DNA of 64,000 nucleotides from a virus. How positions within the stretch are numbered: position 1 is the first letter of the stretch; each line of letters opens with the position of its first letter. A model generated the notes under the pieces. The model had not been told where the DNA came from, did not search any database, and saw nothing but the letters and a program-made list of their open reading frames with translations. Location: the IMG/VR virus record IMGVR_UViG_3300027541_000132. One strand, given 5' to 3'. The position numbers and the translations under genes were made by a program. Shown here piece after piece: positions 2,042 through 63,972 of the stretch.

Positions 2042-2659
2042 TTATGCTATGGGTCCAGCGTCTATACTTATAGGGCTCGGGTCGGTAAACGTGCCCATGT
2101 CCGTTCCAATTTCATTTAACAAATAAGTAATTGGATCGTAGTACGTAGGTGCAATGGGTCCATAGTCAAATGTATTTACCTGTCTATCTAAAAGTGTTAC
2201 ATCAACAAACGGGTTTTGAGTTGCAGTTCCGCCGTTTCTAATTAAACCTACAACATTTCCAGTTAAAGTGCCAGAAAATGTAGTGGCTGTAACAGTACTA
2301 ATGTTATTAATAGCCTGCCCATTAAAGTCAACTGTAGCCGTTGGATGTAAATCTAACTGCAACACATCTCCTACTAATTGTAATCTTAGTGGTCCTAGCG
2401 CATCTAGTTTTCTAAGTTCTAGATTGCTGTCTGCGTTCTTTTGTTTAAAAACACCTAGTCCTGAAGTGCCTATATTTTCAGCACTAACTGGAGCATAACC
2501 GTTGTTGTACAGATATTCAAAGTTAGTTTTAACTTTTTCAAAGGCTGTACGCAGGTCGTCCCCAGTACCGTCGTTGACGACATTTCCTAGGTTAATCTCT
2601 TGTAAATCATCATATAATGCCATGTTATTTTCCTTAGAATCTACCAACAACAATCTCAA
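2042..2659 (-). CDS. Structural protein (205 aa) with fibre N-terminal motif
   Basis: N-terminus 'NLGNVVNDGTGDDLRTAFEKVKTNFEYLY' matches the motif at the start of the 3102-aa protein. Confidence 0.65.
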   Translation of the reverse strand: MRLLLVDSKENNMALYDDLQEINLGNVVNDGTGDDLRTAFEKVKTNFEYLYNNGYAPVSAENIGTSGLGVFKQKNADSNLELRKLDALGPLRLQLVGDVLQLDLHPTATVDFNGQAINNISTVTATTFSGTLTGNVVGLIRNGGTATQNPFVDVTLLDRQVNTFDYGPIAPTYYDPITYLLNEIGTDMGTFTDPSPISIDAGPIA

Positions 2660-11600: not shown

Positions 11601-11942
11601 GCTACTTCTTGATACACTAACAATATCAAAGGTTTCTTGCTCGGAATAATCAAACTGGATAGTACCGTTAGGACTGAAAAAGTCTTTGAATACTAAACTA
11701 GTACCAATAGAATTAACTACTGGAATCTTATTACCTTGTCCTACTAATGTATCAGGAGTATCGCTAAGGTCAGTGAACTTTAAAAATCCGCCTTGACCGA
11801 AAACAGCATATAACTCTTGGAAGTTTTCATTCGTTTTTCTAAACGCTTCACGGATACTATCACCAGTTCCGTCATTACCTGATACGCCGATGTCGACTAT
11901 TTTACGTGCCATTGAATACTCCAAAAAAGACTTTGTATCCAA
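2634..11942 (-). CDS. Giant virion fibre or adhesin-like structural protein (3102 aa) with internal tandem repeats
   Basis: Single uninterrupted 9.3-kb ORF. The N-terminal 'GVSGNDGTGDSIREAFRKTNENFQELY' motif is shared with other fibre proteins. Six or more ~150-aa repeats carry 'N.EFIKAEVI.YI...Y....C.RD.GYI.DA...DL.YGGN'. The C-terminal portion is Thr/Ser/Gly-rich. Confidence 0.85.
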   Translation of the reverse strand: MDTKSFLEYSMARKIVDIGVSGNDGTGDSIREAFRKTNENFQELYAVFGQGGFLKFTDLSDTPDTLVGQGNKIPVVNSIGTSLVFKDFFSPNGTIQFDYSEQETFDIVSVSRSSNVATITLSANHNLDPGQRVTIASTDNTSFNTTSALLLTGTVDNVLVYTNAGTNLSTSAATGTITSYGSVKIDTLSSKLQDDPLPKLQYALDARNQLIGGLRSPINQTDFQTAVNSFNTQHETLYSIDSFAINKGYADSKYVNITGDTMTGHLNVPANATGNQAPRAAEVVLKTGGDMTGVLNLADHPGGLAGAGTPNGEDDLQAATKYYVDNSSYSSRFNLYVTTGGDDTQARTPRGKEGRDRSYAYASINKACQKAEQLVNDAPWETGPYRQLIAYGGGEAFSEVTRIESGASGTTRVYFTNNGGSRVDQGQLPKPDIVSGKIVVGRTSGAQGFIYQYYGSDGSSSIGEDYFDLQDVIGDFVPGENLEFDQAVKNIQISIVVESGIYFEDYPIRVPPNVAIVGDELRRCIVRPADRPSRSPWVDVWFRRDKTFDGLTLTSTEYGYHYLTDPSDILSEPKNNRDLDVFLCNDAVIIRQITCQGHGGFMMVLDPEGEILTKSAYIQQSGSFAGSLNKQRFAGGQYVDGFAGNVPLKIQEKISDTEFLVTGSERAPTTPCSFVIDGRTFKVEAYTDDGNGYGNARKLIRRNIDFIKAEVIGYINTELSPPFTFNETKCARDVGLIVDALGYDLALGTNFNAVRAGQSYYRGTQYSILPDQKDEYLDALIYTRTLISDVLAGNSVARLRAEASFDEITDIIANGIISSDTITWSDPSGAPTSRVNAKNLILDNIEFIKEEIIAWIAEEYPDFVYDEDKCRRDAAYILNSIVYDLLYEGNSATVEAGYQYYDGNGSLQIPGQTLQTTEALAYASGVAQLVVTNTPVPFPKQSAVTQVFDLVNPGSATESARVGVLMGYINTIILSGREAAPTIEYPTFYSVSGSLTDSRTLLLNNKESIKSDTLVYLQQRYSYNQDTCARDTGYICDAIAHDIYYSGNLKTVQAALAYFNASASSKIVIDQQLANTLAAINYIETLILNVINNEDPTVRYQQSVLQYIDTDITDGGLAEATIQDLFDEFIGILENPPSARGARALLVDNKDFIKAEVINYINNKYVGFTYDSATCQRDVGYVIDAIGYDLMFGGNFQTITAARSYYRASAAVAVGVQKAATIDAFTFLRDEILSVVSASATAVTSVTTNMNMFLDVITNGLTQEPAIVTPDPTGYDVNYNRARTLIESNREFIKAEVIQYISNNYVGLSYDPAVCLRDTEYILDALYHDLTYGGNIQTLIAGKAYYSYTTLQVAAPEKPATLAAYGYLQSLVEDIALDLPITALQGGVAQVRGTPGNSSASATAGQRIGEILTIIDLGLGSVPSTITPSTAWVSAGLTGANSALQSAKSTLQTAVTNYIDANYTNTLVYNEEICSRDVGFIVAAVSADLLYGGTYLTIRAAQRYYVGTASSRVVLENQLSQTLDSFAYAKEVAQAVLNQVPPTLNYQVINDVAVENRVSQVFSSDYDGSAFVTRAGQLFDLLNEVITDPEVDVSTVLTGAKPIVYPTYRLVLSTTTPVTNDLEYTISTFTSKADSGVGDGSYDVVFSIVTPVGTTAPRTKTRYRVFGNSNSNYNNDAVECVASTLTSMTLRYPSDPGAFGTGTTTIEYVKDFMLLSAGNTSMCSNDFTQINDLGYGLVATNIGLIETVSVFSYYCWTAYYANNGGQIRSLNGSNAHGEYGIISEGSDPLEVPDKCNLSDNMMQVARVYKQGIYSTDNDVGDLQVFFYQHDYSPYNVSEVEINHGAGVVTELDATSLIGGSGYTNGTYINVPLTGGTGSGITANIVVSGGVVTTVGLVAAGIRYSEGDILSCSNTNVGGTGSGFFITVKTIIGNGIARYEVAGVTDVSSTLAQSVSGTPLKTGPTGGKYYVTYSFTAEPYTPRIGVPYTVSGSTTSGFNGVYTATASTTSSVTLEYSTNPGTWAGGLASLWGLGNVLRLNINTGGNNDTATNGLAVALSHDQPIIIRSNQNFKFYEVDDTNPVRPSTALTFVGDPDAGAIVYRVLAYGNKGPLNEDLAVDESILGFDTTYDYVKLLVNAENVSNADPDNVGQTMGSTAGDTKIAIDRVNETDIESRLNTGDMITAWDGKIHKILSYTDMGLLAGYAYVEIEDVADKCLAGTSASGINTPVDPDFNLDISEPPTLRAGLSSTEPAEVIVRISTCRVTGHDFLDIGTGGYNDTNFPSKIYGAPKEPNQAREVTERTRGRCFYVTTDQDGIFRVGRFFTVDQGTGRVTFAASIALSNLDGLGFKRGVTVSEFSNDDRFTDGANDALPTEAATQGYIDRRLGMDRTNNVLDPTALIGPGYMDRAGLLTFTGPDPMDMGGFVIANLGSPTADTDAANKLYVRNQELSDDRVDTSTSPARSLNDLLVYNGVKWINAETVSTGDIQTSLTPGTKNLALNIKSNVIINADVNSSAAIAQSKLDMNKATTRANATSIAQADLGLASFKSTEFTATNGWIELQTSSSTTTGVLQTKLQYIANDTYLGNNTGSATYPRQVTSGQIVTNGDGIKNASFAPGSVGSNGRAMILTAIGPNAYSTTNISTSAQASSLIQSDGSGRVAVAQLDLTSSSYKTLSVSGTTLTMTTPGAVDFLTAVGTTSAGTTITTVGTLSANAITSASTTTFSPANANVTLSPSGTGTVTIAPASVGSINNVNIGATTRGNGYFKLLSANDTVTLTANQAVTGAANGTGTLQVTGGAGISGDLRVGGTIYGAVTGTLAGTLGLSTYLSFTAGSSYDGSTTRTIQTNATSAATGSTLVARDVNGDFNGRYINSSYFNSSDDVSGGTITYIMAKFGDNYYRSATAAKVASFISGQSMNIAGNASTVTINYNNDSNSTYQMLWGSGNSVYGTGGIYCNPFTDTLYATLFNGTATSARYADLAEKYLSDAEYETGTVVVFGGDEEITVTDKHNDTRVAGVISEKPAHLMNSDLAGKHPLAVGLTGRLPCKVLGKVKKGDILVTAAKKGYAIVNNTPSVGTIIGKSLENKDDLGEGLVEIVVGRF

Positions 11943-44537: not shown

Positions 44538-44578
44538 TCAATTATTATATCTTCACTTCAATATTTTGTCAATTGGTC

Positions 44579-44653
44579 CCGCTACTACGAATCGAACGTA
44601 GACTTACTCTTTAGGAGAGAGTCGTTCTATCCATTGAACTATAGCGAGGGAGG
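44579..44653 (-). tRNA. tRNA-Arg (anticodon CCT)
   Basis: Minus-strand cloverleaf with encoded CCA, T-arm CTACG/AATCGAA/CGTAG (plus view) and anticodon loop CTCCTAA. Confidence 0.75.
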
Positions 44654-44658
44654 GAATT

Positions 44659-44767
44659 TGGTGTGACCGGGAGGGTTCGAACCTCCAAGGACGGCATATC
44701 GCCTAGTCCCGACCCACGGAGTGTTTCACAACAGTCCTGGAGCTCTGCCTATTCGCTCACGGTCACA
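44659..44767 (-). tRNA. Atypical long tRNA-like element (109 nt), anticodon undetermined
   Basis: Encoded CCA, 7-bp acceptor (GTGACCG/CGGTCAC) and canonical T-arm, but about 35 extra nt with no standard anticodon arm. An AGGAC...GTCCT stem encloses a 41-nt insert. Confidence 0.35.
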
Positions 44768-44797
44768 TACTAAGTATATAACCTTTTCAGCAGTTTG

Positions 44798-45253
44798 TCA
44801 ACGGGTTATGAGGTATTCGTAGTTCACTGTGTTGTCGTTTTCTTGCAACACACAGGCACCATTTCTGATATGGAACTTGTAGGCCATTTCAGTTTTTGGG
44901 CTAAGTGTTACAAAACGATTAACAGTTGGGAAAAGTTCTTTTATTTGATCCACTACACCAAAAAGTAGCTCTGCGGCCGCACCCGGCGCATAACTCCAAA
45001 TTGTATAGAAGATTGCTGTAGTTGGTTCTGTGGGTGTTTTAGCCAAATCTTCAACAGTTGTTGGCACAAAATCGTGCAGACTAACACAGACCATTGCACG
45101 TGGTTTTTCGCCTTCTACAGTGGTGGCGACAAATCTGCTACCGCTAACACGAAATTCTTTGGGAATTTCTGGACGTACTGGATCATCCTTGATATAGTCA
45201 AGTAATGGATTAGTAGTTTCTCTGATTAATGTTAGCATATAACTATTTAGCAT
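44798..45253 (-). CDS. Hypothetical protein (151 aa)
   Basis: ORF-track entry embedded in the tRNA region. Confidence 0.5.
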   Translation of the reverse strand: MLNSYMLTLIRETTNPLLDYIKDDPVRPEIPKEFRVSGSRFVATTVEGEKPRAMVCVSLHDFVPTTVEDLAKTPTEPTTAIFYTIWSYAPGAAAELLFGVVDQIKELFPTVNRFVTLSPKTEMAYKFHIRNGACVLQENDNTVNYEYLITR

Positions 45254-45276
45254 TTAGTGGGCAGATTATGGTGTTA

Positions 45277-45351
45277 TGGTGGTAACGGTGAGATTCGAAC
45301 TCACACCTTGCTCCGTATGAAGGAGGTGCACGACCATTATGCTACGTTACC
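45277..45351 (-). tRNA. tRNA-Met (anticodon CAT)
   Basis: CCA encoded, T-arm GTGAG/ATTCGAA/CTCAC, anticodon loop TTCATAC. Confidence 0.75.
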
Positions 45352-45890
45352 AGATTATTAGTAAGATGTCCCGAGAGTTTTGGTTTGGGTAAGGCCATCC
45401 GACGGTGCGATTCGTCCCTCTCTTTGTCTAGCCCAACATGAAGTTCTTGTAGTCTCAATCCGCTCACCTTGCACCGGCGCTTGATACATATACTCTACAG
45501 CATTAAAGTTTATAACTTCAATTAACAAAAACTTCCGATCTTTGTTAACTCCTTGCGGATGCTTTTAGAACCTTAACTACTTACTAATAAAAGGGGTGGA
45601 GAGAGAAAGGCAAGTAATAGACTGGACAATGTACAAGCGGGCTCTATAAAGATACCCTTAACAAGTCACAAGGCGCAAAGCACAGGGACCTGTATATTTC
45701 CAGTTAGCAACTCACAAAGTCGATTAATATATAGAACTGGTTCACACAAGCACGAAACGTTTTCAAGACGTTTTGCCAGTAGTTGATGTTCGGTCTCTAT
45801 AAGAGATCAAACCTTAGGCATGTAGCCTAAGTCTGTCTATCCTAATCTCCTTCTCTACTCCAGGCTCGGGCTTTCGCCTTTGCCAAAACT

Positions 45891-45964
45891 TGGTTGCGGG
45901 ACCTGGAATCGAACCAGGATCTAGAGCTTATGAGACTCTTGAGTTACCGTTTCTCTATCCCGCG
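45891..45964 (-). tRNA. tRNA with CAT anticodon (Met or Ile2) with C1·A72 mismatch
   Basis: CCA encoded, T-arm CCTGG/AATCGAA/CCAGG, anticodon loop CTCATAA. The acceptor stem has a terminal C·A mismatch. Confidence 0.6.
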
Positions 45965-45977
45965 ATAACTTTATAGG

Positions 45978-46093
45978 TGCTCTCTGTTCGACTCGAACGA
46001 AACCTGCTGAGCTCCTTATCTTCCTGGCACTTTCGGTGGGTAGTCGACTTAGCACCTAACTCGTGTTATCCAGTGTAGTTCAGCTCAGAGAGC
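45978..46093 (-). ncRNA. Long tRNA-like element (116 nt) with canonical T-arm and 7-bp acceptor pairing
   Basis: GCTCTCT...AGAGAGC acceptor complementarity spans 116 nt. The T-arm GTTCG/TTCGAGT/CGAAC is perfect. No CCA is encoded. The internal region was not foldable by eye. Confidence 0.3.
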
Positions 46094-46301
46094 ATTTATA
46101 AAGTGTCTAGCCACTCCCACCACAGGAGCCCTAAACCGAGCTGTTACTCTGTCCACTAGCCTTTCCATTTAGACGGTGCTGAGGTCCGCCTTTGTGATTT
46201 CTCAAGTCGCTTTAAACAAGCCTTGCGGTAGATCCAATGCACCGAGCCATTAAGGTGTAGCAATTACCTAACTCTATCACGCTGAGTTAACGCGGGGTCT
46301 G

Positions 46302-46874
46302 TTACAGTAAACCTTCTGCTTGCAGAACTGCTTCTGTTTTGTCAGACAATTGGATAGTTGTCTGAACATTTAACTCTAGGATTTCATCCTGAAGTTTTTG
46401 TTTCTGCTTTTTAGCAGTTGCCACTCTACGACGGAATCCGTCTAGATCTTCACGAGTGAGCACACTAGTGTCTACTGTGTCGTTGTAGCCATAGATGCTA
46501 CGACGGTTTTCGCTTTTGTCGTTACGGATCTTGTCCAAACGACCTGCTACAACCTTTGCGCTTTCGCGAACGGTCTTACTAGCCAATCCGTTGTAGAATT
46601 GGATTTGTTTTTCTAGATGTGCAACATCGGCCAATCTAGTGTCGATTCTAACTTCTGTGTTAGCACCGCTGACACTTTTACGAATCTCGTAAAGTGCTTC
46701 CACTAACGCATCTCTGCGTGTAAGGTTGTCGCAGAGTGTTCCTGCAACTTTGGAAATTTCTTGTTCCGCTTCTTGGAACTCGTTGATTTTTACTGTGGTC
46801 TCAAACTGGAAACCTTTGACGGTATCGTTGATACTGTTCTGAAGTGCATTTGCCTTACGTAGGGAGATATTCAT
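46302..46874 (-). CDS. Coiled-coil hypothetical protein (190 aa) within the tRNA array
   Basis: The track ORF's N-terminus runs through tRNA-Gly, so the start was trimmed to Met 'MNISLRKANALQ' (ATG 46872-46874). Confidence 0.5.
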   Translation of the reverse strand: MNISLRKANALQNSINDTVKGFQFETTVKINEFQEAEQEISKVAGTLCDNLTRRDALVEALYEIRKSVSGANTEVRIDTRLADVAHLEKQIQFYNGLASKTVRESAKVVAGRLDKIRNDKSENRRSIYGYNDTVDTSVLTREDLDGFRRRVATAKKQKQKLQDEILELNVQTTIQLSDKTEAVLQAEGLL

Positions 46875-46940
46875 TTGTTTTTCCTTTAATGTTTCTATTA
46901 TACAATCTTTTAAATCTAAATCAATGCCTTTTGGCAAAAC

Positions 46941-47016
46941 TGGAGCGGGAGACGAGGTTCGAACTCGCGACATTTACCTTGGCAAGGTAATGCTCTACCA
47001 ACTGAGCTACTCCCGC
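46941..47016 (-). tRNA. tRNA-Gly (GCC)
   Basis: CCA encoded, acceptor GCGGGAG/CTCCCGC, anticodon loop TTGCCAA. Confidence 0.8.
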
Positions 47017-47064
47017 ATATGAAGAACCTAAGGCAAAGTTTATAACTTATCCAAAGGCCATATA

Positions 47065-47140
47065 TGGTACACGGTACGGGAATCGAACCCGTCTTACTGA
47101 CGTGAAAGGCCAGTGTCCTAAACCGATAGACGAACCGTGC
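47065..47140 (-). tRNA. tRNA-Glu (TTC)
   Basis: CCA encoded, T-arm ACGGG/AATCGAA/CCCGT, anticodon loop CTTTCAC. Confidence 0.7.
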
Positions 47141-47146
47141 ATTACT

Positions 47147-47222
47147 TGGCTCCCCAGGGTGGGATCGAACCACCGACACCCTGATTAACAGTCAGGTGCT
47201 ACTACCGCTGAGCTACTAGGGA
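47147..47222 (-). tRNA. tRNA-Asn (GTT)
   Basis: CCA encoded, anticodon stem CCTGA/TCAGG, loop CTGTTAA. Confidence 0.8.
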
Positions 47223-47229
47223 ATAAACT

Positions 47230-47304
47230 TGGTACCTGGTGACAGTTTCGAACTGCCGACCCTCTCGGTGTAAACGAGACGCTCTACCACTGAGCTAACC
47301 AGGC
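47230..47304 (-). tRNA. tRNA-Val (TAC)
   Basis: CCA encoded, anticodon stem TCTCG/CGAGA, loop TTTACAC. Confidence 0.8.
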
Positions 47305-47314
47305 AAACTAACAT

Positions 47315-47391
<77 letters not shown>

Positions 47392-47396
47392 AATGA

Positions 47397-47472
47397 TGGA
47401 GCGGGAGGCGAGAGTTGAACTCGTCTATTTCAGTTTGGAAGACTGACGTGTAACCACAAACACTTCACCCGC
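47397..47472 (-). tRNA. tRNA-Gly (TCC)
   Basis: CCA encoded, anticodon stem TCAGT/ACTGA, loop CTTCCAA. Confidence 0.75.
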
Positions 47473-47478
47473 ATATTT

Positions 47479-47563
47479 TGGTGCCCCAGGAGAGACTCGA
47501 ACTCTCACGGCTCTCGCCACTGGCTTCTAAGACCAGCGTGTCTACCATTCCACCACCAGGGCA
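47479..47563 (-). tRNA. tRNA-Leu (TAG), type II
   Basis: 85 nt with a long variable arm, CCA encoded, anticodon loop CTTAGAA. Confidence 0.8.
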
Positions 47564-48367
47564 TTAACTGACAATACTATTTAAGTATTCCTGAATTGTC
47601 GTTGCAATTTTTTCTTGCACAGACAATTTAATTTTTGCATTCTCACCATTAGCACTCATATACTGTTTTCCGTATTCAGTACAATCTATACCAGTGTGCA
47701 TAAACTCTTTAAAAATTTCTGAGTTGTCAGGATTAGGATCTCCAAACCTAACAGTCGTCCATTTAATATTTTGAGAATCTAAAAACTTAATTAACATATT
47801 GTAACCATTTCTATGTCTACGAATATGCCAATCTTTGCTTTGACTTTTTTGAAAAGCAATACCGTTTAATCGCTTTTTATGAACTTCAATTGGATATCTA
47901 TCTGGATTCCATTCTCCGTCTACATAATTTTCACGTTCAAATACATATCGTTGATTGTTATATTTGAAACTGTGTGCTATATGACTAAACGTGTAATCTG
48001 TAACTAATACATGATCCGGTTTAGGATTCTCTGCTAGGTACTGTTTTAATCTTTTGTGATGACCTATAAAATGTCCACCGTTAATAGATATATTAACTAC
48101 ATTGGAAACATTTAAGAAATTAGGCCATGCGGCTTTTTGTTCTTCTTCCCATAGATAATGCCAAACAACATTTTCCATATTGCCATTGGGCATAGGTGTT
48201 GTAACATTGTTTTCTTTTCTATGTTTTAGATACCATTTAAAAACACTTCTAAAATCATTATGGAAACGTAGACTCCAAGTCCTCGGAGCATCGTCGTTGA
48301 CTATGTCACCAGCCAAACAATTATTGCCATTACTTTGGCAATCTCCTAAAATTAAAAGTGTTTTCAT
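47564..48367 (-). CDS. SGNH/GDSL-hydrolase-like protein (267 aa) inside the tRNA array
   Basis: N-terminal 'LILGDCQSNGNN' resembles the GDS(L) block I. Confidence 0.5.
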   Translation of the reverse strand: MKTLLILGDCQSNGNNCLAGDIVNDDAPRTWSLRFHNDFRSVFKWYLKHRKENNVTTPMPNGNMENVVWHYLWEEEQKAAWPNFLNVSNVVNISINGGHFIGHHKRLKQYLAENPKPDHVLVTDYTFSHIAHSFKYNNQRYVFERENYVDGEWNPDRYPIEVHKKRLNGIAFQKSQSKDWHIRRHRNGYNMLIKFLDSQNIKWTTVRFGDPNPDNSEIFKEFMHTGIDCTEYGKQYMSANGENAKIKLSVQEKIATTIQEYLNSIVS

Positions 48368-48381
48368 ATTAATAGTTATCT

Positions 48382-48458
48382 TGGCGCACCGTAGGGGACT
48401 TGAACCCCTGGCCTCCGACGTGACAGGCCGGCGCTCTGACCAACTGAGCTAACGGTGC
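48382..48458 (-). tRNA. tRNA-Asp (GTC)
   Basis: CCA encoded, T-arm AGGGG/ACTTGAA/CCCCT, anticodon loop CTGTCAC. Confidence 0.8.
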
Positions 48459-48597
48459 AAATTCTATTCTGAAACACACTAACCAACTACCAGAAGCATT
48501 TATAATGCCGTTATTCGGTTCGAGCTAATGTGTTTTAGAATAGTGCTAACGCTGAGATTATACGTTAGCCAATAGTGCCTCTAGCATTATAGTCAGC

Positions 48598-48827
48598 CTT
48601 GCGAGCCAACCTTCTCTAGACATCCACATAAGCCATTACTGTACCTATGTCCACTATCAGCATCGCCGTTTTTAAAGACAGGCAGTAGTCTTGTCGCCAT
48701 ATGCTATTCTACGCTATCTACTCCGTTGACCTTGCGAGCCATTCAGCGGCGCTAACCACTTACGAAACTTCCAGCATAAACAGATTTCACCTTGCGAGCT
48801 ACGTCTGACTCGATTACCTTGCGGCTC
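48598..48827. repeat. Four copies of CCTTGCGrGC motif in an ORF-free island
   Basis: CCTTGCGAGC at 48598, 48731 and 48791, and CCTTGCGGCT at 48818. Related CCTTGCGG is seen at 45551, 46221 and 49213. Confidence 0.6.
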
Positions 48828-48876
48828 GAGTATTAGATGCTTTTCACATATGACCGAGGCAGTCTTTGCATTTTAT

Positions 48877-48949
48877 AATCGATAGTTGGGATCGAACCAA
48901 CAGTCCATTGCTTAAGAGGCAATTGCGTTACCATTACGCTATATCAAAC
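48877..48949 (-). tRNA. tRNA-Lys (CTT)-like, no encoded CCA, U1·U72
   Basis: T-arm GTTGG/GATCGAA/CCAAC, anticodon stem ATTGC/GCAAT, loop CTCTTAA. The acceptor stem's terminal pair is mismatched. Confidence 0.55.
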
Positions 48950-49598
48950 CTACCGCGATGAGCTGCCTCTGTTGCTCAATAACCTTTTGGATTACTGAAT
49001 ACAACTCACCACATACCTTTTGTCTCGCGGACTACTCAGTGATATTTCACGATCAATGTCCTGCATCAAAACAGTCCACTAACCATTAATATTGCATACA
49101 AGCCCTTAGGAGCGACCCCTTGGACAAATACACTACCCTTTCTCATACCAATTCGCAAGTTGGTTTTGTTAGGAAGTCAGCACCACCCGTTACTTTTCAT
49201 GCACCCTGGTTCCCTTGCGGGCCAGTCGATACACATTCTTTCCCTAACACTTGCTTCATTGTTACATCCACCGGTCTTCTCAGTGAACGCTACCTCGCGG
49301 TAGTGAGCAGGCTTGTTTACATGAACCATTACTGGCGGAGTTGCGTAGGCTTACCTCCTTTGGGTTGATCACTCAACTTATTCTTCGTCAACGGCGAACC
49401 GCCAACAGGATAATAAACTACCCTTAAATTTTTACCATTAAAAAATAACATTACACCCTATGGGATGAAACGTATTTCTGAGTGGAGTTCGATTCTCCTC
49501 ATAAGCCATTGTTCACGGTTTTCTCAGAAGGGTAAGATGGCCTTATCCTTCATAAGTCTATGCGTCCATAGACGATACCCGTCAATGCTATTTCTTAA

Positions 49599-49684
49599 TG
49601 GTGGATGCGGCTGGAGTCGAACCAGCAGTGCCGTAAGGCGGCGGATTTACAGTCCACTGGGGTTACCAATTTTCCTACACATCC
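49599..49684 (-). tRNA. tRNA-Tyr (GTA), type II
   Basis: 86 nt, CCA encoded, T-arm GCTGG/AGTCGAA/CCAGC, anticodon loop CTGTAAA. Confidence 0.75.
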
Positions 49685-49771
49685 ATATCTGCTTGAAATT
49701 TTTAAAGAACTAGGTTAATTTCTTAACTAGTCTCTATTGTATATGAACTTTAGAAACTAGTCAAGACATTT

Positions 49772-49866
49772 TGGCAGTGAGTAAGGGATTCGAACCCTTG
49801 ATCCCCGTTTTTGCAGGAATGCCTTCTTAGCAGGAAGGTGCCTTCGACCAGCTCGGCCAACTCACT
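49772..49866 (-). tRNA. tRNA-Ser (GCT), type II
   Basis: 95 nt, CCA encoded, anticodon stem CCTTC/GAAGG, loop CTGCTAA. Confidence 0.75.
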
Positions 49867-49910
49867 ATATTTGTATTATACGATCAACTGTTAAACAAGT
49901 CAACACCTTT

Positions 49911-50000
49911 TGGCCGAAGCGGTGAGATTCGAACTCACGGACCCTTTCGGATCGTCTGTTTTCAAGACAGGTGCAATAAACCGGACTCTGCCACGCTTCG
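49911..50000 (-). tRNA. tRNA-Ser (TGA), type II
   Basis: 90 nt, CCA encoded, anticodon loop CTTGAAA. Confidence 0.7.
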
Positions 50001-50046
50001 TTGTTTTACTTGTATAATTCGTTGTAGATAGAATCTGCTACAAATG

Positions 50047-50124
50047 TGGTACCCCTGCTCCGATTCGAACGGAGAGAACTTCTCCTTTTGAGAGAGACGA
50101 CTTTACCAATTTGTCCACAGGGGT
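50047..50124 (-). tRNA. Type-I tRNA with anticodon CAA (Leu-family anticodon, short variable arm)
   Basis: CCA encoded, acceptor ACCCCTG/CAGGGGT, T-arm CTCCG/ATTCGAA/CGGAG, anticodon loop CTCAAAA. Confidence 0.55.
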
Positions 50125-50129
50125 ATATC

Positions 50130-50203
50130 TGGTGCTCAAGGAAAGAATCGAACTTTCGATTGTGTCGTACCAAGACACTGGTATACCATTTACCTACAAG
50201 AGC
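50130..50203 (-). tRNA. tRNA-Thr (GGT), acceptor stem with U·U at 5-68 and 6-67
   Basis: CCA encoded, anticodon stem GTGTC/GACAC, loop TTGGTAC. Confidence 0.65.
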
Positions 50204-50205
50204 CT

Positions 50206-50277
50206 TGGCGCCTCTGAGTAGATTCGAACTACTATAACCTGGTTTAGAAGACCTGGCACTGCTCCATCAGCAGAGGC
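50206..50277 (-). tRNA. tRNA-Arg (TCT)
   Basis: CCA encoded, anticodon loop CTTCTAA, one A·A in the anticodon stem. Confidence 0.65.
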
Positions 50278-50278
50278 A

Positions 50279-50355
50279 TGGTACCCTTGGTTGGATTCGA
50301 ACCTACACACAACGGATTTTAAATCCATTCGCATTACCAATTAGCGTACAAGGGC
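50279..50355 (-). tRNA. Type-I tRNA with anticodon TAA (Leu-family anticodon, short variable arm)
   Basis: CCA encoded, anticodon stem ATGGA/TCCGT, loop TTTAAAA, 5-nt variable loop. Confidence 0.55.
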
Positions 50356-50362
50356 ATAATTA

Positions 50363-50438
50363 TGGTGCCGCCCCTTGGGATCGAACCAAGTTCCTCGGTG
50401 CTTCAAACCGGTGCAATGACCACATTTGCTAAAGCGGC
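50363..50438 (-). tRNA. tRNA-Phe (GAA)
   Basis: CCA encoded, T-arm CTTGG/GATCGAA/CCAAG, anticodon loop TTGAAGC. Confidence 0.7.
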
Positions 50439-50442
50439 GATA

Positions 50443-50519
50443 TTTGGGGTGAAGCCGGGAATCGAACCCTGCCTTACTGTTTCACAGACAGCCGTGCGGA
50501 CCACTACACTAGCAACACC
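50443..50519 (-). tRNA. tRNA-His (GTG)
   Basis: Discriminator C73 and an extra 5' G (G-1) are consistent with His. Anticodon loop CTGTGAA. Two U·U mismatches in the acceptor stem. Confidence 0.65.
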
Positions 50520-50521
50520 AT

Positions 50522-50598
50522 TGGCCGGCCCTGAGAGACTCGAACTCCCAACCTCCAGTTTCGAAGACTGGCACTCTAATCCATTGAGTTAAGGACCG
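50522..50598 (-). tRNA. tRNA-Arg (TCG)
   Basis: CCA encoded, anticodon stem CCAGT/ACTGG, loop CTTCGAA. Confidence 0.75.
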
Positions 50599-50605
50599 TT
50601 AAAAT

Positions 50606-50679
50606 TGGCAGGCCTACCAGGACTCGAACCTGGAACGACTGAGTCAAAGTCAGTTGTGTTACCATTACACCATAGGCCA
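50606..50679 (-). tRNA. tRNA-Gln (TTG)
   Basis: CCA encoded, anticodon stem ACTGA/TCAGT, loop CTTTGAC, U1·U72. Confidence 0.7.
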
Positions 50680-50904
50680 ACAGATTGAATTTGTAAGTAG
50701 TTGCCCCATCGTTATAGCAACCATTCACCCATGTATATAAAGCCGGCTGGGACTCGGTACGTCACTTGGGATACTAGTCCAGTTAGCAACCAATCTGCAG
50801 GGATCTTCCGATCCCCCGGGAGTTGAACCCGTCCCCTTTTACTATTAAGGTAGTTCGAACTTACCTACAATAGCGTGACATTCTCTTGCTGACACTTACA
50901 AAAC

Positions 50905-50979
50905 TTGGTGCCCCAGGATGGAATCGAACCACCACACCCTGCTTACAAAACAGGACCTCTACCACTAAGGATACAAGGG
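50905..50979 (-). tRNA. tRNA-Thr (TGT)
   Basis: CCA encoded, anticodon loop TTTGTAA, U6·U67. Confidence 0.7.
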
Positions 50980-50984
50980 CAAAA

Positions 50985-51062
50985 TTGGTCTCCACGGTAC
51001 GATTCGAACGTACAGCCTCCTGACTCCAGATCAGGCCGTCTACCAGATTGACATTACGCAGA
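50985..51062 (-). tRNA. tRNA with atypical anticodon loop UCUGGAG (34-36 = TGG, C33)
   Basis: CCA encoded, T-arm GTACG/ATTCGAA/CGTAC, perfect anticodon stem CCTGA/TCAGG, but C at position 33. Confidence 0.5.
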
Positions 51063-51072
51063 GATAAAAATA

Positions 51073-51147
51073 ATTGCGACCGAAGGACTCGAACCTTCGC
51101 GGTAATCTAGAATGCCCCGGCAAGGCCGGTTAACCCACCATTGTCGC
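51073..51147 (-). tRNA. tRNA-like with non-canonical anticodon arm (CCGGC-CTT-GCCGG hairpin)
   Basis: T-arm GAAGG/ACTCGAA/CCTTC and acceptor TGCGACC/TGTCGCA, with no CCA. The anticodon region forms a 5-bp/3-nt hairpin instead of a 7-nt loop. Confidence 0.35.
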
Positions 51148-51151
51148 AAAT

Positions 51152-51226
51152 TTGGTGGAGGCCGAGGAAATCGAATCCTTCTAGACATCTTCCTTGCAAG
51201 GGAAGACCGTAGCCCACTACTGCCCC
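51152..51226 (-). tRNA. tRNA-Ala (TGC)
   Basis: CCA encoded, perfect anticodon stem CTTCC/GGAAG, loop CTTGCAA. Confidence 0.7.
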
Positions 51227-51303
51227 CAAATTGGTGTTAGTTTCTATACCACCCATTGAAACTAACAAACATTGAGAGAACATGGATGAACCCACAAGAT
51301 CTC

Positions 51304-51378
51304 TATTTGCTCTGGTATAGCGTACGGGGATCGAACCCGCCTAGTCACCTTGAAAGGGTGATGACCTCCCCAGAAGTC
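51304..51378 (-). tRNA. tRNA-Glu (TTC), second copy
   Basis: CCA encoded, anticodon stem TCACC/GGTGA, loop CTTTCAA. Confidence 0.7.
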
Positions 51379-51384
51379 GAACGC

Positions 51385-51458
51385 TATGTAAATTGGTTCC
51401 TGGACCGAGAATTGAACTCAGAATGACCGGTTATCAGCCGATTGTTATACCATTTAAC
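51385..51458 (-). tRNA. tRNA-Ile (GAT)
   Basis: CCA encoded, anticodon stem ATCGG/CCGGT, loop CTGATAA. Confidence 0.8.
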
Positions 51459-51640
51459 TATCCAGGAATAATACTATACAAAAAGAAACTAACGACAATG
51501 CGCTATGCACCCAGAGTCTATAGTTCCTGGCTGTGGTTAGTTTGTTTTTATACACTACCATATGGAAGCACTCTTATGCCTTTTTCGTCATAAGATGGTG
51601 GCCCGTCCTTACTACTGACGCTATGCGACCAGTTAAGAAT

Positions 51641-51715
51641 GCTTTCATATGGTAGGGGCACAGAGAATCGAACTCTGATTTACGGGTTAAAAGCCCGCTA
51701 CTTTAACCATTAAGT
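51641..51715 (-). tRNA. tRNA-Lys (TTT)
   Basis: CCA encoded, T-arm CAGAG/AATCGAA/CTCTG, anticodon loop CTTTTAA. Confidence 0.75.
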
Positions 51716-51718
51716 TAT

Positions 51719-51794
51719 ACCCCCATATGGTCCCTGCTGTGAGATTCGAACTCACACCTCATTGATTAAGAGTCAAGTGCGCTACCATTGACGC
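51719..51794 (-). tRNA. tRNA-Lys (CTT)
   Basis: CCA encoded, T-arm GTGAG/ATTCGAA/CTCAC, anticodon loop CTCTTAA. Confidence 0.65.
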
Positions 51795-51974
51795 TAAACA
51801 GGGTTGTACGTATTGATTTGATTTTACGTGCCAACCCTAGACCATACGGGAGATCTAGAGTGACACTAACGTTTAGCACGTTTCATGCTACTCTCCTTTT
51901 AATATTTTTTCAAAACTTGATACAACACGAACATTATAACTAACACTACAAGTACTGCCATAATATTCTCCTTA

Positions 51975-52064
51975 TGGTCCCCCGTTGAGGAATCGAACCT
52001 CATCCTGGACCTTATCTAGATTAATCGGTTATAAGCCGACCTGCTCTCCATGAGCTAACGGGGG
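51975..52064 (-). tRNA. Type-II (long variable arm) tRNA with apparent anticodon TAT
   Basis: 90 nt, CCA encoded, acceptor CCCCCGT/ACGGGGG, anticodon stem GTCGG/CCGAT, loop CTTATAA. The anticodon and class combination is unusual. Confidence 0.45.
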
Positions 52065-52072
52065 ATATAACC

Positions 52073-52150
52073 TGGAGCAACGGGTCAGATTTGAACTGAC
52101 GGTTTTACGGATTTGCAATCCGTTGCATTGGGCCTCTCTGCCACCGTTGC
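52073..52150 (-). tRNA. tRNA-Cys (GCA)
   Basis: CCA encoded, anticodon stem ACGGA/TCCGT, loop TTGCAAA. Confidence 0.7.
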
Positions 52151-52155
52151 ATTAT

Positions 52156-52230
52156 TGGCGTACCCCCAGGGACTCGAACCCCGACTAGCAGTTTTGGAGA
52201 CTGTCGTGCTGCCATTAACACTAGGGATAC
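52156..52230 (-). tRNA. tRNA-Trp (CCA)
   Basis: CCA encoded, classic anticodon loop CTCCAAA. Confidence 0.8.
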
Positions 52231-52649: not shown

Positions 52650-53073
52650 TTAAAAGTTATTGTGTATGTTACTGTTAACTTACACGATCCTCCAAGAACC
52701 CTACGATAATCTCAGGTGTACGATCATTACCTAGACCTAGCCCGACATTACTAAACTGTGACCAATAGGCGGACATACATGCCGGCGCTTTGGCTTGTTT
52801 AGATATCGTTTGTCTATGTAAACTAATCGTTTGCATTTTGTTTCTCTTTTTCTTACCTTCTTAAAAGTTGTAGCGGAATTGCTACTGTCTTTGTATTGTA
52901 ATGCCTTTCAACATCTTTGTCAACATCTTTTTGTCTTTTTTGGACAACCTAATGTTTTGTGGAAAGTGATTGCTTTACAATATTTGTATTATATGAGTAT
53001 TTATAAAACTTGTCAATACCTATGTTGAAATGTGGCGATTTTGCAACATTTTGAAAACCGCCACACTTTTGTA

Positions 53074-57353: not shown

Positions 57354-57427
57354 TGGTGCGCTAGACAGGAATCGAACCTGCTATCGGGAGTTTAGAAGTC
57401 CCTGCCTATCCATTGAGCTTCAAGCGC
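57354..57427 (-). tRNA. Candidate amber-suppressor tRNA (anticodon CTA), type I
   Basis: CCA encoded, acceptor GCGCTTG/CTAGCGC (U6·U67), T-arm GCAGG/TTCGATT/CCTGT, anticodon arm GGGAC/TTCTAAA/CTCCC (C·C at the loop-closing pair). Positions 34-36 = CUA. Confidence 0.55.
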
Positions 57428-63059: not shown

Positions 63060-63140
63060 GTGATCTTTCTATGAAATAAAACTGCGATACTGTGTATTAT
63101 AGGCTCGGACAGGGCATCTGTCAATGTGTTTGGTAAAATA

Positions 63141-63162
63141 AAAAAGGGCCCGAAGGCCCTTT
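63141..63162. terminator. Rho-independent terminator, second copy of GGGCCCGAAGGCCC hairpin
   Basis: AAAAAAGGGCCCGAAGGCCCTTT, identical to the stem-loop at 54699-54719. A strong T-run follows on the minus strand. Confidence 0.8.
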
Positions 63163-63427
63163 GGTTGTTTGGGTTACAAGGTAAGTCCTACCCCGGAGTT
63201 GCAGTTTCTTAGGCTGCTACTAGACCATTGTCGGCTGTGAAGCCTTCAACAGTGAAGTACTCAAATGTAGATGCGTTTGCATTTACTAGTTTTGCTTGAT
63301 TTACGGTCATCGCCTACCGTGTTGCCGTCTCTACTATCTACCCCTGTCGAAACCATGGCAGGCCCATCATAAAAACACAATACCAAAGTAAATTTACAAT
63401 GAATACCAAAGTAAATTTATGTCCTTA

Positions 63428-63475
63428 TGGTGGACCTGGCGGGAGTCGAACCCGCGTCCAGAAGTCCTTCGCTTT
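63428..63475 (-). ncRNA. tRNA 3'-half-like fragment (T-arm + acceptor + CCA) resembling tmRNA/tRNA 3' end
   Basis: ...GGACGCGGGTTCGACTCCCGCCAGGTCCACCA has a perfect T-arm GCGGG/AGTCGAA/CCCGC. No complementary 5' acceptor strand was found. It lies directly downstream of ORF 63496-63972. Confidence 0.4.
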
Positions 63476-63495
63476 GAAGGGATTACAACAATTCT

Positions 63496-63972
63496 TTAAA
63501 CGCCTGCCTTTGCTAATGTGCCAAATATCCAAGGTTTTGGATCTAAGTCAATTGTCCAAGATGTCGGTTCATTTCTCATATCTTTTTTGTACACAATATT
63601 TATTTGGTCGTGTGTTAGTTTGACTAAGAAGCCGTCTGTTAATTGTTTTAGATTAGCCTTAACTGTTGCGTAATCTACAAAGGCAACAGCGAATGTTCCT
63701 TTAATTTGGACTATCATTAAATGATTAAAAACTTTGTCTAGTGTAGTTCTTTGATTCTTACTTTCGTAAACATTTTTTAATTTAAGACTGATTGTCTTTT
63801 TAGGAGTTCCTGACTTTGCGTAGAACAAAGGTTCGTTGCCAGTTTTAACTTCTACGTCGCCATTGGTCCAATCGGTAAATTTTATATCGTAATCGCGAAC
63901 GTCAGTCCACTCGATGTTCTTTTTATGATTAGATAATTGCATTGCCGCAATAATGAATTTTTCTTTCATCAT
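63496..63972 (-). CDS. Hypothetical protein (158 aa)
   Basis: ORF-track entry. Confidence 0.5.
   Translation of the reverse strand: MMKEKFIIAAMQLSNHKKNIEWTDVRDYDIKFTDWTNGDVEVKTGNEPLFYAKSGTPKKTISLKLKNVYESKNQRTTLDKVFNHLMIVQIKGTFAVAFVDYATVKANLKQLTDGFLVKLTHDQINIVYKKDMRNEPTSWTIDLDPKPWIFGTLAKAGV

Follow-up and report, generated by a model that had tools for sequence, protein, structure and literature searches.

The 64,000-nt window analysed here (IMG/VR virus record IMGVR_UViG_3300027541_000132) carries on its minus strand, at positions 44574–52230, a dense run of tRNA genes that includes a 90-nt type-II tRNA with a UAU anticodon. The family to which this long-arm tRNA(UAU) belongs, as a divergent member, is widespread: it occurs on viral contigs and in bacterial mobile elements, and its extra arm usually resembles, in sequence, the anticodon arm of tRNA-Ile(GAU). 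Homologous tRNA islands, which we reached through a 267-aa open reading frame (ORF) within the island and through an unusual tRNA-Arg(UCU) sequence, are present on IMG/VR viral contigs of 110–278 kb. Very probably, the region is a tRNA island from a large phage that has not been cultured, and its odd members appear to be conserved, working genes; we assign it to a phage because its relatives are IMG/VR viral contigs with matching islands. A sequence-only reading of this DNA had presented the odd tRNAs as isolated anomalies. Instead, they belong to conserved families common to many phages. Phage tRNA islands as such are an already known kind of locus, ordinary in big phages, and it is on the type-II tRNA(UAU) family with its Ile-like arm that experiments would be worthwhile.

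The long-arm tRNA(UAU) family

The sequence-only reading had described a type-II tRNA with an apparent TAT anticodon, and ARAGORN likewise returned a tRNA(UAU) with a long variable region (Table 1). Its anticodon arm is normal, with the loop CUUAUAA, and its 21-nt variable region contains a short hairpin (a 3–4-bp stem without a C-G pair and the loop UAGAUAA). The E. coli tRNA-Ile set of A35, U36, A37, A38, A73, C29-G41, C4-G69 and U12-A23 is complete in this tRNA: C29-G41 and A37A38 are found in the anticodon arm, and C4-G69, U12-A23 and A73 in the body. The exception is position 34, where instead of G34 or lysidine-34 we found U34, both in the window tRNA and in 145/145 copies sampled from viral contigs.

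The versions of this tRNA at the related loci L001 and L003 are 92 and 96 nt long. A pattern built from the D-arm and anticodon of these two, with the variable region left free, matched at least 120 viral contigs, and among the matches listed all of the UAU tRNAs called by ARAGORN (117/117) were 90–96 nt long. This was also true of a second scan with a different D-arm pattern, in which the arm was again left free (28/28 further copies). The tRNA is annotated as tRNA-Ile in 38 Vibrio phage records; in the record that we inspected, that of Vibrio phage Pontus (Thalassavirus, Demerecviridae), it measures 93 nt. Another 42 copies were found in bacterial genomes (Xanthomonas, Stenotrophomonas, Microbulbifer, Marinobacter, several alphaproteobacteria, Nitrospirales and Verrucomicrobia). 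Most of them stand alone, as at L145, L149, L130, L144, L129 and L137. In X. translucens, the one context examined, the tRNA(UAU) adjoins genes for a Mob_Pre relaxase and an SprT-like protein and sits in a mobile element. A dedicated protein partner was sought beside the stand-alone bacterial copies, but all that came to light was same-order synteny, plus spurious ORFs overlapping the tRNA itself.

In an alignment of 22 sequences, the five-helix structure was 94.5% paired, and both partners had changed in 20/25 pairs, among them all four that form the variable arm. The arm of the family consists of a 7-nt loop closed by a 4-bp stem, which is usually extended by a G facing a G. We compared 106 unique members, of which the 72 viral ones are unbiased on the arm and the bacterial ones are biased by the search pattern. 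The arm loop reads CAGAUAA in 101 of them, CAGAUUA in 4 and UAGAUGA in 1, and the third arm pair from the loop is C-G in 106/106, with free covariation at the two pairs between it and the loop. At position 29-41 of the true anticodon arm, the pair is G-C in the same 106/106. In most members C29-G41 and A38 are missing from the true anticodon arm, and it is the variable arm that has them, at the corresponding positions.

The D-arm of tRNA(UAU) has a 4-bp stem and a 5–8-nt loop, compared with 3 bp and 9–11 nt in the tRNA-Leu of the same islands, and the combination of a Leu/Ser-type D-arm with variable-arm identity elements that marks nev-tRNAs was not found. A comparison of the tRNA(UAU) body, with the arm removed, to the other island tRNAs was uninformative on origin because the best matches were scattered over Thr, Gly, His and Arg. 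Our literature search for a long-arm tRNA-Ile in phages or bacteria found no description in the library searched, an absence that is no proof of novelty.

Other phage tRNAs outside the Leu, Ser and Tyr families also carry long variable arms: Cys(GCA) of 86–87 nt, Gln(UUG) of 86 nt, a CAU tRNA of 88 nt, Ile(GAU) of 84 nt and Gly(UCC) of 87 nt (L080 6671–6757, L106 3795–3880, L102 404–489, L113 2221–2308, L077 1858–1941 and L125 826–912). The Ile(GAU) tRNA has a Leu/Ser-type body, and the Gly(UCC) tRNA is that of Vibrio phage Pontus. Their arms are plain short-loop hairpins, several with GAAA tetraloops, and none looks like an anticodon arm. In addition, L020 (9722–9807) and L054 (4181–4266) share an identical 86-nt Leu-type tRNA with a 6-nt anticodon loop, which ARAGORN labels 'tRNA-???' with a 2-nt anticodon.

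What the extra arm may do

The arm loop CAGAUAA differs from the anticodon loop of tRNA-Ile(GAU), CUGAUAA, only at position 33, and its nearest counterparts among all the anticodon loops in these islands are the Ile(GAU) loops. The C29-G41 pair is found in 56% of sampled phage tRNA-Ile(GAU) and in 5% of all other tRNAs. In E. coli, C29-G41 and the bases of the anticodon loop are identity elements for isoleucyl-tRNA synthetase (IleRS) (PMC9976931). This enzyme favours LAU over UAU 360-fold, and Mycoplasma mobile required a change in its IleRS to use UAU (PMC3575796). Because the arm carries anticodon-arm identity elements that are missing from the decoding arm, it may help the host IleRS to accept an otherwise rejected anticodon, and the long-arm tRNA(UAU) would then be an AUA decoder without need for lysidine (TilS). 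We propose, very tentatively and as something rather unlikely to hold in this full form, that the arm is a second, non-decoding identity anticodon arm that lets an unmodified host IleRS charge a UAU tRNA. If true, a mobile element could have AUA read without TilS and without any change in the synthetase, and aminoacylation identity would have a new way of being placed within a tRNA.

Several features weigh against such a second identity arm. The variable arm lies away from where IleRS expects the anticodon, and mimicry would need either alternative stacking of both hairpins or a reach by the C-terminal domains of IleRS. The base that is invariant at the U33 position of the arm loop is A, not U, and 2/28 members of the second sample (L177 and L187) have unrelated arm loops. 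The window's own arm is short and lacks the C-G pair, and its decoding arm itself has C29-G41 and A38. Finally, the pattern used for the bacterial scan fixed part of the arm, and the 42 bacterial copies are no independent evidence for arm conservation.

Much of this suits a different explanation, to which we give an even chance: the arm may be only structural or involved in processing, as a fold stabiliser, a handle for enzymes that modify U34 or A37, or what an insertion left behind. Its likeness to the Ile(GAU) anticodon arm would then be historical, not functional. Two members retain the arm with unrelated loops, the arm of the window copy is degenerate, the look-alike loop has A33, and a search for a conserved protein neighbour found none. 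Such an arm sits less easily with the invariance of the loop and the C-G pair amid neighbouring pairs that covary freely, which argues for selection on sequence and not on shape alone; moreover, a C-G pair at that place is otherwise Ile-specific in these islands.

Contents and likely use of the tRNA island

We scanned the island on the minus strand with ARAGORN (default and relaxed, -ps85) and with the Rfam tRNA model RF00005 (gathering score and E-value mode), taking 29 bits for RF00005 and the ARAGORN default as thresholds for tRNA membership. ARAGORN at default returned 31 tRNA genes, and none on the plus strand. RF00005 at its gathering score recovered 30/31 of these, with the 72-nt tRNA-Arg(UCU) as the sole one missed, and in E-value mode added a match at 50990–51062 (31.6 bits), the Pro(UGG) variant. 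ARAGORN called this gene, as Pro(UGG) at 50986–51063, and also Ala(UGC), only at -ps85. The total is 33 credible tRNA genes in 7.7 kb on one strand, plus one tRNA-like element, and the earlier estimate of about 35 was therefore fair. All but one of these genes (32/33) pass at least one tool at a standard score; Ala(UGC) needs ARAGORN -ps85, and the tRNA-like element is called by neither tool. The other -ps85 calls (44659, 45496, 49378 and 51276+) were judged spurious or remnants. The first of these (44659–44738, minus strand, beside Arg(CCU)) is a possible tRNA remnant, called at -ps85 only, with a perfect T arm, an ACCA end and an acceptor stem of only 4 bp.

The anticodon set spans all 20 amino acids, as had been claimed, provided that the non-canonical Ala(UGC) counts: Ala rests wholly on this gene. 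We accept it as a tRNA gene, completing the cover, because G3.U70 and A73 are present and homologues with strong covariation occur in at least nine other loci. The duplicates listed by the sequence-only reading hold for Glu UUC, Lys CUU, Gly, Ser, Thr and CAU, each present twice, but Arg occurs three times (CCU, UCU and UCG) rather than four. In addition, one counted Lys(CUU) 'tRNA' is part of a GOLLD RNA, and the conserved non-coding elements in the gaps had gone unnoticed. CCA is encoded in all island tRNAs except the GOLLD-embedded Lys, and is ambiguous in His, whose 3' end (...CACCCCA) is as in E. coli tRNA-His.

In a count of 14962 codons from 40 long window ORFs, the phage tRNA set reads about 85% of codons under strict wobble and about 97% if U34 reads four-codon boxes. 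The only uncovered codons are CGU and CGC, the main Arg codons here, for which relatives carry ACG or GCG tRNAs. The set is close to self-sufficient. Codon mismatch and loss of host tRNAs, the usual explanations and those suggested by the sequence-only reading, are both compatible with these codon figures, which do not separate them.

Strong sigma-70-like promoter matches (consensus matches only) lie on the minus strand upstream of and within the island, and host RNA polymerase would make polycistronic precursors from it. Host RNase P and 3' trimming enzymes would free the tRNAs with CCA already encoded, and host aminoacyl-tRNA synthetases would charge them. Phage translation would then depend little on the host tRNA pool, be the difficulty ill-matched codons, host shut-off or tRNA-targeting defences.

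The tRNAs of T5 and other phages are reported to rescue phages from tRNA-cleaving defences, and the present island could likewise be chiefly a counter-defence that replaces host tRNAs cut by anticodon nucleases, with nuclease-resistant variants among its copies. We consider this possible but doubtful. The candidate variants are a Pro tRNA with C33, A37 and G38, the duplicate Glu and Lys tRNAs, the U.U stems and perhaps the extra arm of tRNA(UAU) as a decoy; that the Pro loop variant and the Glu and Lys duplicates suit such a role is conjecture. Duplicates with altered anticodon loops do exist and are conserved. The second tRNA-Pro(UGG), noticed earlier as a tRNA with C33, has the loop UCUGGAG and 3 nt between its acceptor and D stems, and its orthologues at L087, L038 and L028 combine an invariant loop with compensatory changes in the acceptor and T stems. 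A conserved Lys/Arg-rich mini-ORF precedes the Lys tRNAs. A Shine-Dalgarno sequence is followed by ATG AAA CGT GCT AAA CGT TAG (MKRAKR*, 51886–51866) and directly by a covarying hairpin (51866–51828). The homologues read MKR[GAS]K[RL]*, with synonymous codon changes and an invariant TAG stop, and the mini-ORF might encode a leader peptide through which Lys/Arg-tRNA supply or amber suppression is sensed. The near-complete set, however, is not confined to known nuclease targets, and counter-defence is compatible with, not exclusive of, a general supply of tRNAs.

The recurrent U.U acceptor mismatches that had been noted earlier were seen in Gly(UCC), Thr(GGU) (two), His (two), Gln, Thr(UGU) and the GOLLD-embedded Lys. 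The Thr(GGU) mismatches are the same in L003, and U.U accounts for 99/170 acceptor-stem mismatches among 1337 unique tRNAs of related islands, mainly at 1-72, 6-67 and 5-68. The tRNA-His is also one nucleotide short in its acceptor/T stack; it is near-identical in L001 and L005, and the L002 His is canonical.

Other unusual tRNAs, neighbouring elements and known systems

Two type-I tRNAs with the Leu anticodons CAA and UAA had been reported, with the proviso that automated finders might fold them as type II. ARAGORN gives them as 78 and 77 nt with 6- and 5-nt variable loops, and the automated finders thus return both these type-I Leu tRNAs and the type-II tRNA(UAU), leaving the manual folds unrefuted. 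In both short Leu tRNAs the D stem is of the 3-bp Leu type, the D-loop is AAUUGGUAA, and A73 and U48 are present, but the long variable arm typical of bacterial tRNA-Leu is absent. Leu(CAA) has orthologues of 78–81 nt in L001, L003 and L005. Across related islands the short form falls on differing isoacceptors, with intermediates of 80–82 nt, and in phages it occurs for all four anticodons seen (CAA, UAA, UAG and GAG). Among 181 tRNA-Leu from 124 related loci, 64 are 76–79 nt long, and Ser and Tyr tRNAs are always long. The unique short Leu tRNAs of related islands all have A73 and a variable loop ending in U (U48) (49/49), together with a Leu-type 3-bp D stem and a D-loop of 9–11 nt, mostly 11. 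With the short Leu(UAG) of locus L001 as query, 188 cultured-phage records gave full-length ungapped matches annotated tRNA-Leu, mostly from T5-like phages of Escherichia and Salmonella. The tRNA-Leu(UAG) of the T5-like coliphage DT57C is 77 nt with a 5-nt variable loop, and Vibrio phage JSF10 too has an annotated 77-nt tRNA-Leu(UAG). Type-I tRNA-Leu is common in phages, and well-known ones already carry it.

E. coli leucyl-tRNA synthetase (LeuRS) requires A73, A15-U48 and the placement of G18G19, and the long arm is no identity element (PMC9976931). The short tRNA-Leu would keep in A73, the Leu D-loop and U48 the elements used by an E. coli-type LeuRS, and charging by a proteobacterial LeuRS is plausible because the E. 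coli enzyme relies on these and not on the arm. Against this stands a 2019 study, which described bacterial tRNA-Leu as nearly all type II and in which the type-I tRNA-Leu of Streptomyces was reportedly not charged by E. coli LeuRS (PMC6614811).

The sole tRNA-Ala of the island has a 4-bp D stem that abuts the acceptor stem, a 4-nt D-loop NGGG and a 6-bp anticodon stem. In a family of nine, G3.U70 is found in 9/9 and A73 is kept, 14/22 pairs changed on both sides, and A7 and A49 are never paired. Alanyl-tRNA synthetase needs little beyond G3.U70 and A73, and so the reduced body fits; keeping both, the stunted tRNA-Ala should still be charged. More generally, the non-canonical tRNAs would be viable because in each the altered part is one that the synthetase can do without. 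In tRNA-Arg(UCU), a 3-bp D hairpin (CUG-AUGGAG-CAG) abuts the acceptor stem, and the anticodon stem has an A.A mismatch. It is near-identical in five other loci (among them L001, L003, L005 and L006), with compensatory changes in the T stem and acceptor.

The tRNA-like element folds as had been described, with a 3-nt hairpin loop, a 5-bp acceptor and a 6-bp T arm. It contains UAGAUUA and a stem like a truncated UAU anticodon arm, and when a conserved counterpart was sought in other loci only the T arm matched. It probably derives, by decay, from a paralogue of the type-II tRNA(UAU).

We also weighed recoding, in which the long-arm tRNA(UAU) would carry Leu or Ser, the short Leu-anticodon tRNAs would carry another amino acid, and the phage proteins would differ from standard translation. 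LeuRS and seryl-tRNA synthetase (SerRS) ignore the anticodon, and the nematode nev-tRNA-Ile(UAU), a class-II tRNA with a UAU anticodon that is charged with Leu, is a precedent (PMC3333845, PMC4033280). The tRNA(UAU) family has A73 and A15/U48, and some bacterial copies have G2-C71, but in most of the phage copies this pair is C2-G71, which acts against SerRS in E. coli tRNA-Leu. Its 4-bp D stem and short D-loop are not of the Leu/Ser type. Leu or Ser charging is made less likely by this class-I type of D-arm, which in Vibrio phage Pontus equals that of the adjoining tRNA-Ile(GAU). As the window tRNA(UAU) also has the E. coli Ile set bar position 34, and the short Leu tRNAs retain all the Leu elements tested, recoding seems very improbable.

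Least credible of all, to the point of being nearly negligible, is that only the canonical tRNAs work and the others are decaying pseudogenes or gene-finding artefacts: this would suit the tRNA-like element, with its missing CCA, 3-nt loop and want of a conserved counterpart, and the failure of Ala and Arg(UCU) under the Rfam tRNA model, but Ala, Arg(UCU), Pro-C33, type-I Leu and type-II UAU, though not the tRNA-like element, recur elsewhere with compensatory stem changes and invariant anticodon loops, the reduced Ala is the island's only tRNA-Ala, and cultured T5-like phages carry type-I Leu. The single-sequence folding energies are unremarkable and do not separate the odd tRNAs from shuffles, which would also fit pseudogenes; tRNA folding energies usually do not stand out from shuffles.

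Two structured RNAs lie among the tRNAs. The match to GOLLD (207.2 bits against a gathering score of 150) covers model positions 1–416, and the 5' variable part may extend towards 49598. GOLLD is known from phage tRNA islands, with tRNAs sometimes carried in its linker (PMC12286853). The second RNA, about 225 nt, begins where the CCA of tRNA-Thr(UGU) stops and reaches almost to tRNA-Gln. Homologues are present at 17 or more other phage tRNA-island loci, and of 42 pairs in the RNAalifold structure 24 show compensatory changes. No Rfam family matched it at E<=1. It has no similarity to the 'stable RNA' of T5-like phages, and a passing likeness to the conserved regions of RNase P was dropped since the element order is wrong (by eye). 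Between tRNA(UAU) and the mini-ORF, a 20-codon hydrophobic ORF (51899–51961, minus strand; MAVLVVLVIMFVLYQVLKKY*) has a good AAGGAG ribosome-binding site.

In the window as a whole, the standard code gives long ORFs, and the G+C content is about 40%. An ATP-dependent DNA ligase and a subtilase are among the Pfam matches. So is a 409-aa protein (800–2029, minus strand) with the Mtd_N domain, the N-terminus of the major tropism determinant, which is typical of the targets of diversity-generating retroelements. The Mtd_N gene is adjoined by a 3102-aa ORF without Pfam match (2634–11942, minus strand). In a megablast comparison with cultured phages, the complete island matched only at single tRNAs (80–92%), and no close cultured relative was found, the window DNA ligase being at most 34% identical to any cultured-phage ligase. 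Outside the island, a tRNA with a CUA anticodon (57354–57427, minus strand; ARAGORN label 'Pyl', Rfam 38 bits) has U.U at 6-67. Although this tRNA is present, we dropped stop-codon recoding: TAG readthrough lengthens no plausible gene. The stops of the 40 long ORFs are TAA in 29, TGA in 10 and TAG in 1. A two-piece (permuted) transfer-messenger RNA (tmRNA) lies at 63118–63581 on the minus strand (RF04321 138 bits, beta_tmRNA 129 bits; tag peptide ANASTFEYFTVEGFTADNGLVAA), and a permuted tmRNA likewise adjoins tRNAs in the related locus L002.

Table 1. Features of the tRNA island and its upstream promoter match, by position in the window
Feature	Position	Strand	Evidence and remarks
tRNA-Arg(CCU), island's last gene	44574..44648	minus	ARAGORN
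tRNA(CAU), elongator Met or Ile2 type	45277..45351	minus	ARAGORN
tRNA(CAU), C1.A72 mismatch, initiator-like	45891..45964	minus	ARAGORN
tRNA-Gly(GCC)	46941..47016	minus	ARAGORN
tRNA-Glu(UUC), copy 1	47065..47140	minus	ARAGORN
tRNA-Asn(GUU)	47147..47222	minus	ARAGORN
tRNA-Val(UAC)	47230..47304	minus	ARAGORN
tRNA-Pro(UGG), canonical loop UUUGGGA	47315..47391	minus	ARAGORN
tRNA-Gly(UCC), U.U at 6-67	47397..47472	minus	ARAGORN
tRNA-Leu(UAG), 84 nt, canonical type II	47479..47562	minus	ARAGORN
ORF, 267 aa	47564..48367	minus	no Pfam match; query for related islands
tRNA-Asp(GUC)	48382..48458	minus	ARAGORN
GOLLD RNA, conserved part	48549..49012	minus	Rfam RF02032, full model
tRNA-Lys(CUU) embedded in GOLLD, no CCA, 8-bp acceptor	48876..48949	minus	ARAGORN
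tRNA-Tyr(GUA), type II	49599..49684	minus	ARAGORN; promoter-like site ahead, 49764–49736
tRNA-Ser(GCU), type II	49772..49866	minus	ARAGORN; sigma-70-like promoter ahead, 49903–49875
tRNA-Ser(UGA), type II	49911..50000	minus	ARAGORN
tRNA-Leu(CAA), type I	50047..50124	minus	ARAGORN; Rfam 54.8 bits
tRNA-Thr(GGU), tandem U.U at 5-68 and 6-67	50130..50203	minus	ARAGORN
tRNA-Arg(UCU), 72 nt, reduced D-arm	50206..50277	minus	ARAGORN; not found by Rfam
tRNA-Leu(UAA), type I	50279..50355	minus	ARAGORN; Rfam 55.6 bits
tRNA-Phe(GAA)	50363..50438	minus	ARAGORN
tRNA-His(GUG), tandem U.U mismatches	50446..50519	minus	ARAGORN; Rfam 36 bits
tRNA-Arg(UCG)	50522..50598	minus	ARAGORN
tRNA-Gln(UUG), U1.U72	50606..50679	minus	ARAGORN
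Structured RNA, about 225 nt, unassigned class	50680..50905	minus	homologues and covariation
tRNA-Thr(UGU), U.U at 6-67	50906..50980	minus	ARAGORN
tRNA-Pro(UGG), second	50985..51063	minus	Rfam 31.6 bits (E-value mode); ARAGORN -ps85
tRNA-like element, no CCA	51073..51147	minus	fold z = -1.2; no Rfam or ARAGORN call
tRNA-Ala(UGC), stunted D-arm, CCA encoded, sole tRNA-Ala	51153..51227	minus	ARAGORN -ps85; missed at default thresholds
tRNA-Glu(UUC), copy 2	51313..51387	minus	ARAGORN
tRNA-Ile(GAU), anticodon loop CUGAUAA	51394..51467	minus	ARAGORN
tRNA-Lys(UUU)	51650..51724	minus	ARAGORN, Rfam
tRNA-Lys(CUU)	51728..51803	minus	ARAGORN, Rfam
Mini-ORF and hairpin, upstream of tRNA-Lys(CUU)/(UUU)	51828..51895	minus	homologues in 10 other loci
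tRNA(UAU), type II, 90 nt, divergent family member	51975..52064	minus	ARAGORN; Rfam 45.9 bits
tRNA-Cys(GCA)	52073..52150	minus	ARAGORN, Rfam
tRNA-Trp(CCA), CCA encoded	52156..52230	minus	ARAGORN; Rfam 48 bits
Sigma-70-like promoter TTGACA-17-TACAAT, upstream of first tRNA	52895..52923	minus	consensus match only

The island itself is a further example of a well-known phage strategy. What it adds is that phage islands hold conserved kinds of tRNA which the standard tools overlook or label wrongly, and this phage would therefore score as without tRNA-Ala. The tRNA(UAU) family in turn offers an experimental route to how horizontally moving DNA reads AUA in foreign hosts and to how far identity elements can shift within a tRNA.

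Like the islands of T4, T5 and other Demerecviridae, and metagenomic huge phages, this one has clustered tRNAs on one strand with small ORFs and stable RNAs between them, encodes CCA and is near-complete; T5-like phages carry type-I tRNA-Leu(UAG), as related islands do. Unlike them, it has a GOLLD RNA, a two-piece tmRNA and a CUA tRNA nearby, several reduced D-arms and no close cultured relative. The GOLLD RNA, in its tRNA-island location and its embedded tRNA, resembles those of phage and mycobacterial tRNA arrays without notable difference (PMC12286853). The shortened D-arms of Ala(UGC) and Arg(UCU) recall D-arm-reduced mitochondrial tRNAs, but in the phage forms the D-loop still contains GG and the T arm is normal, and these forms would be used with bacterial ribosomes and synthetases. 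Similarly, the short Leu tRNAs share with the type-I tRNA-Leu(CAA) of Streptomyces coelicolor and with mitochondrial tRNA-Leu a short variable loop, a Leu anticodon and a type-II Leu alongside, whereas the phage copies retain the E. coli-type Leu D-loop and U48.

For the long-arm tRNA(UAU), the nearest likeness in shape is the nematode nev-tRNA-Ile(UAU), with its long variable arm and UAU anticodon. The nev-tRNAs, however, have a Leu-type body and are charged with Leu, whereas the phage family has a class-I-type D-arm and a 3–4-bp arm with a 7-nt loop resembling an Ile anticodon loop, and is found in phages and bacterial mobile elements. In decoding, the family would be like tRNA-Ile2(UAU) of Mycoplasma mobile and the tilS-bypass tRNA-Ile(UAU) of B. 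subtilis, in which UAU reads AUA without lysidine. Those two are ordinary type-I tRNAs, whereas the phage family has the extra arm. Finally, M. mobile has an altered IleRS (Arg865; PMC3575796), whereas a family carried by phages and mobile elements must use the unchanged IleRS of its host.

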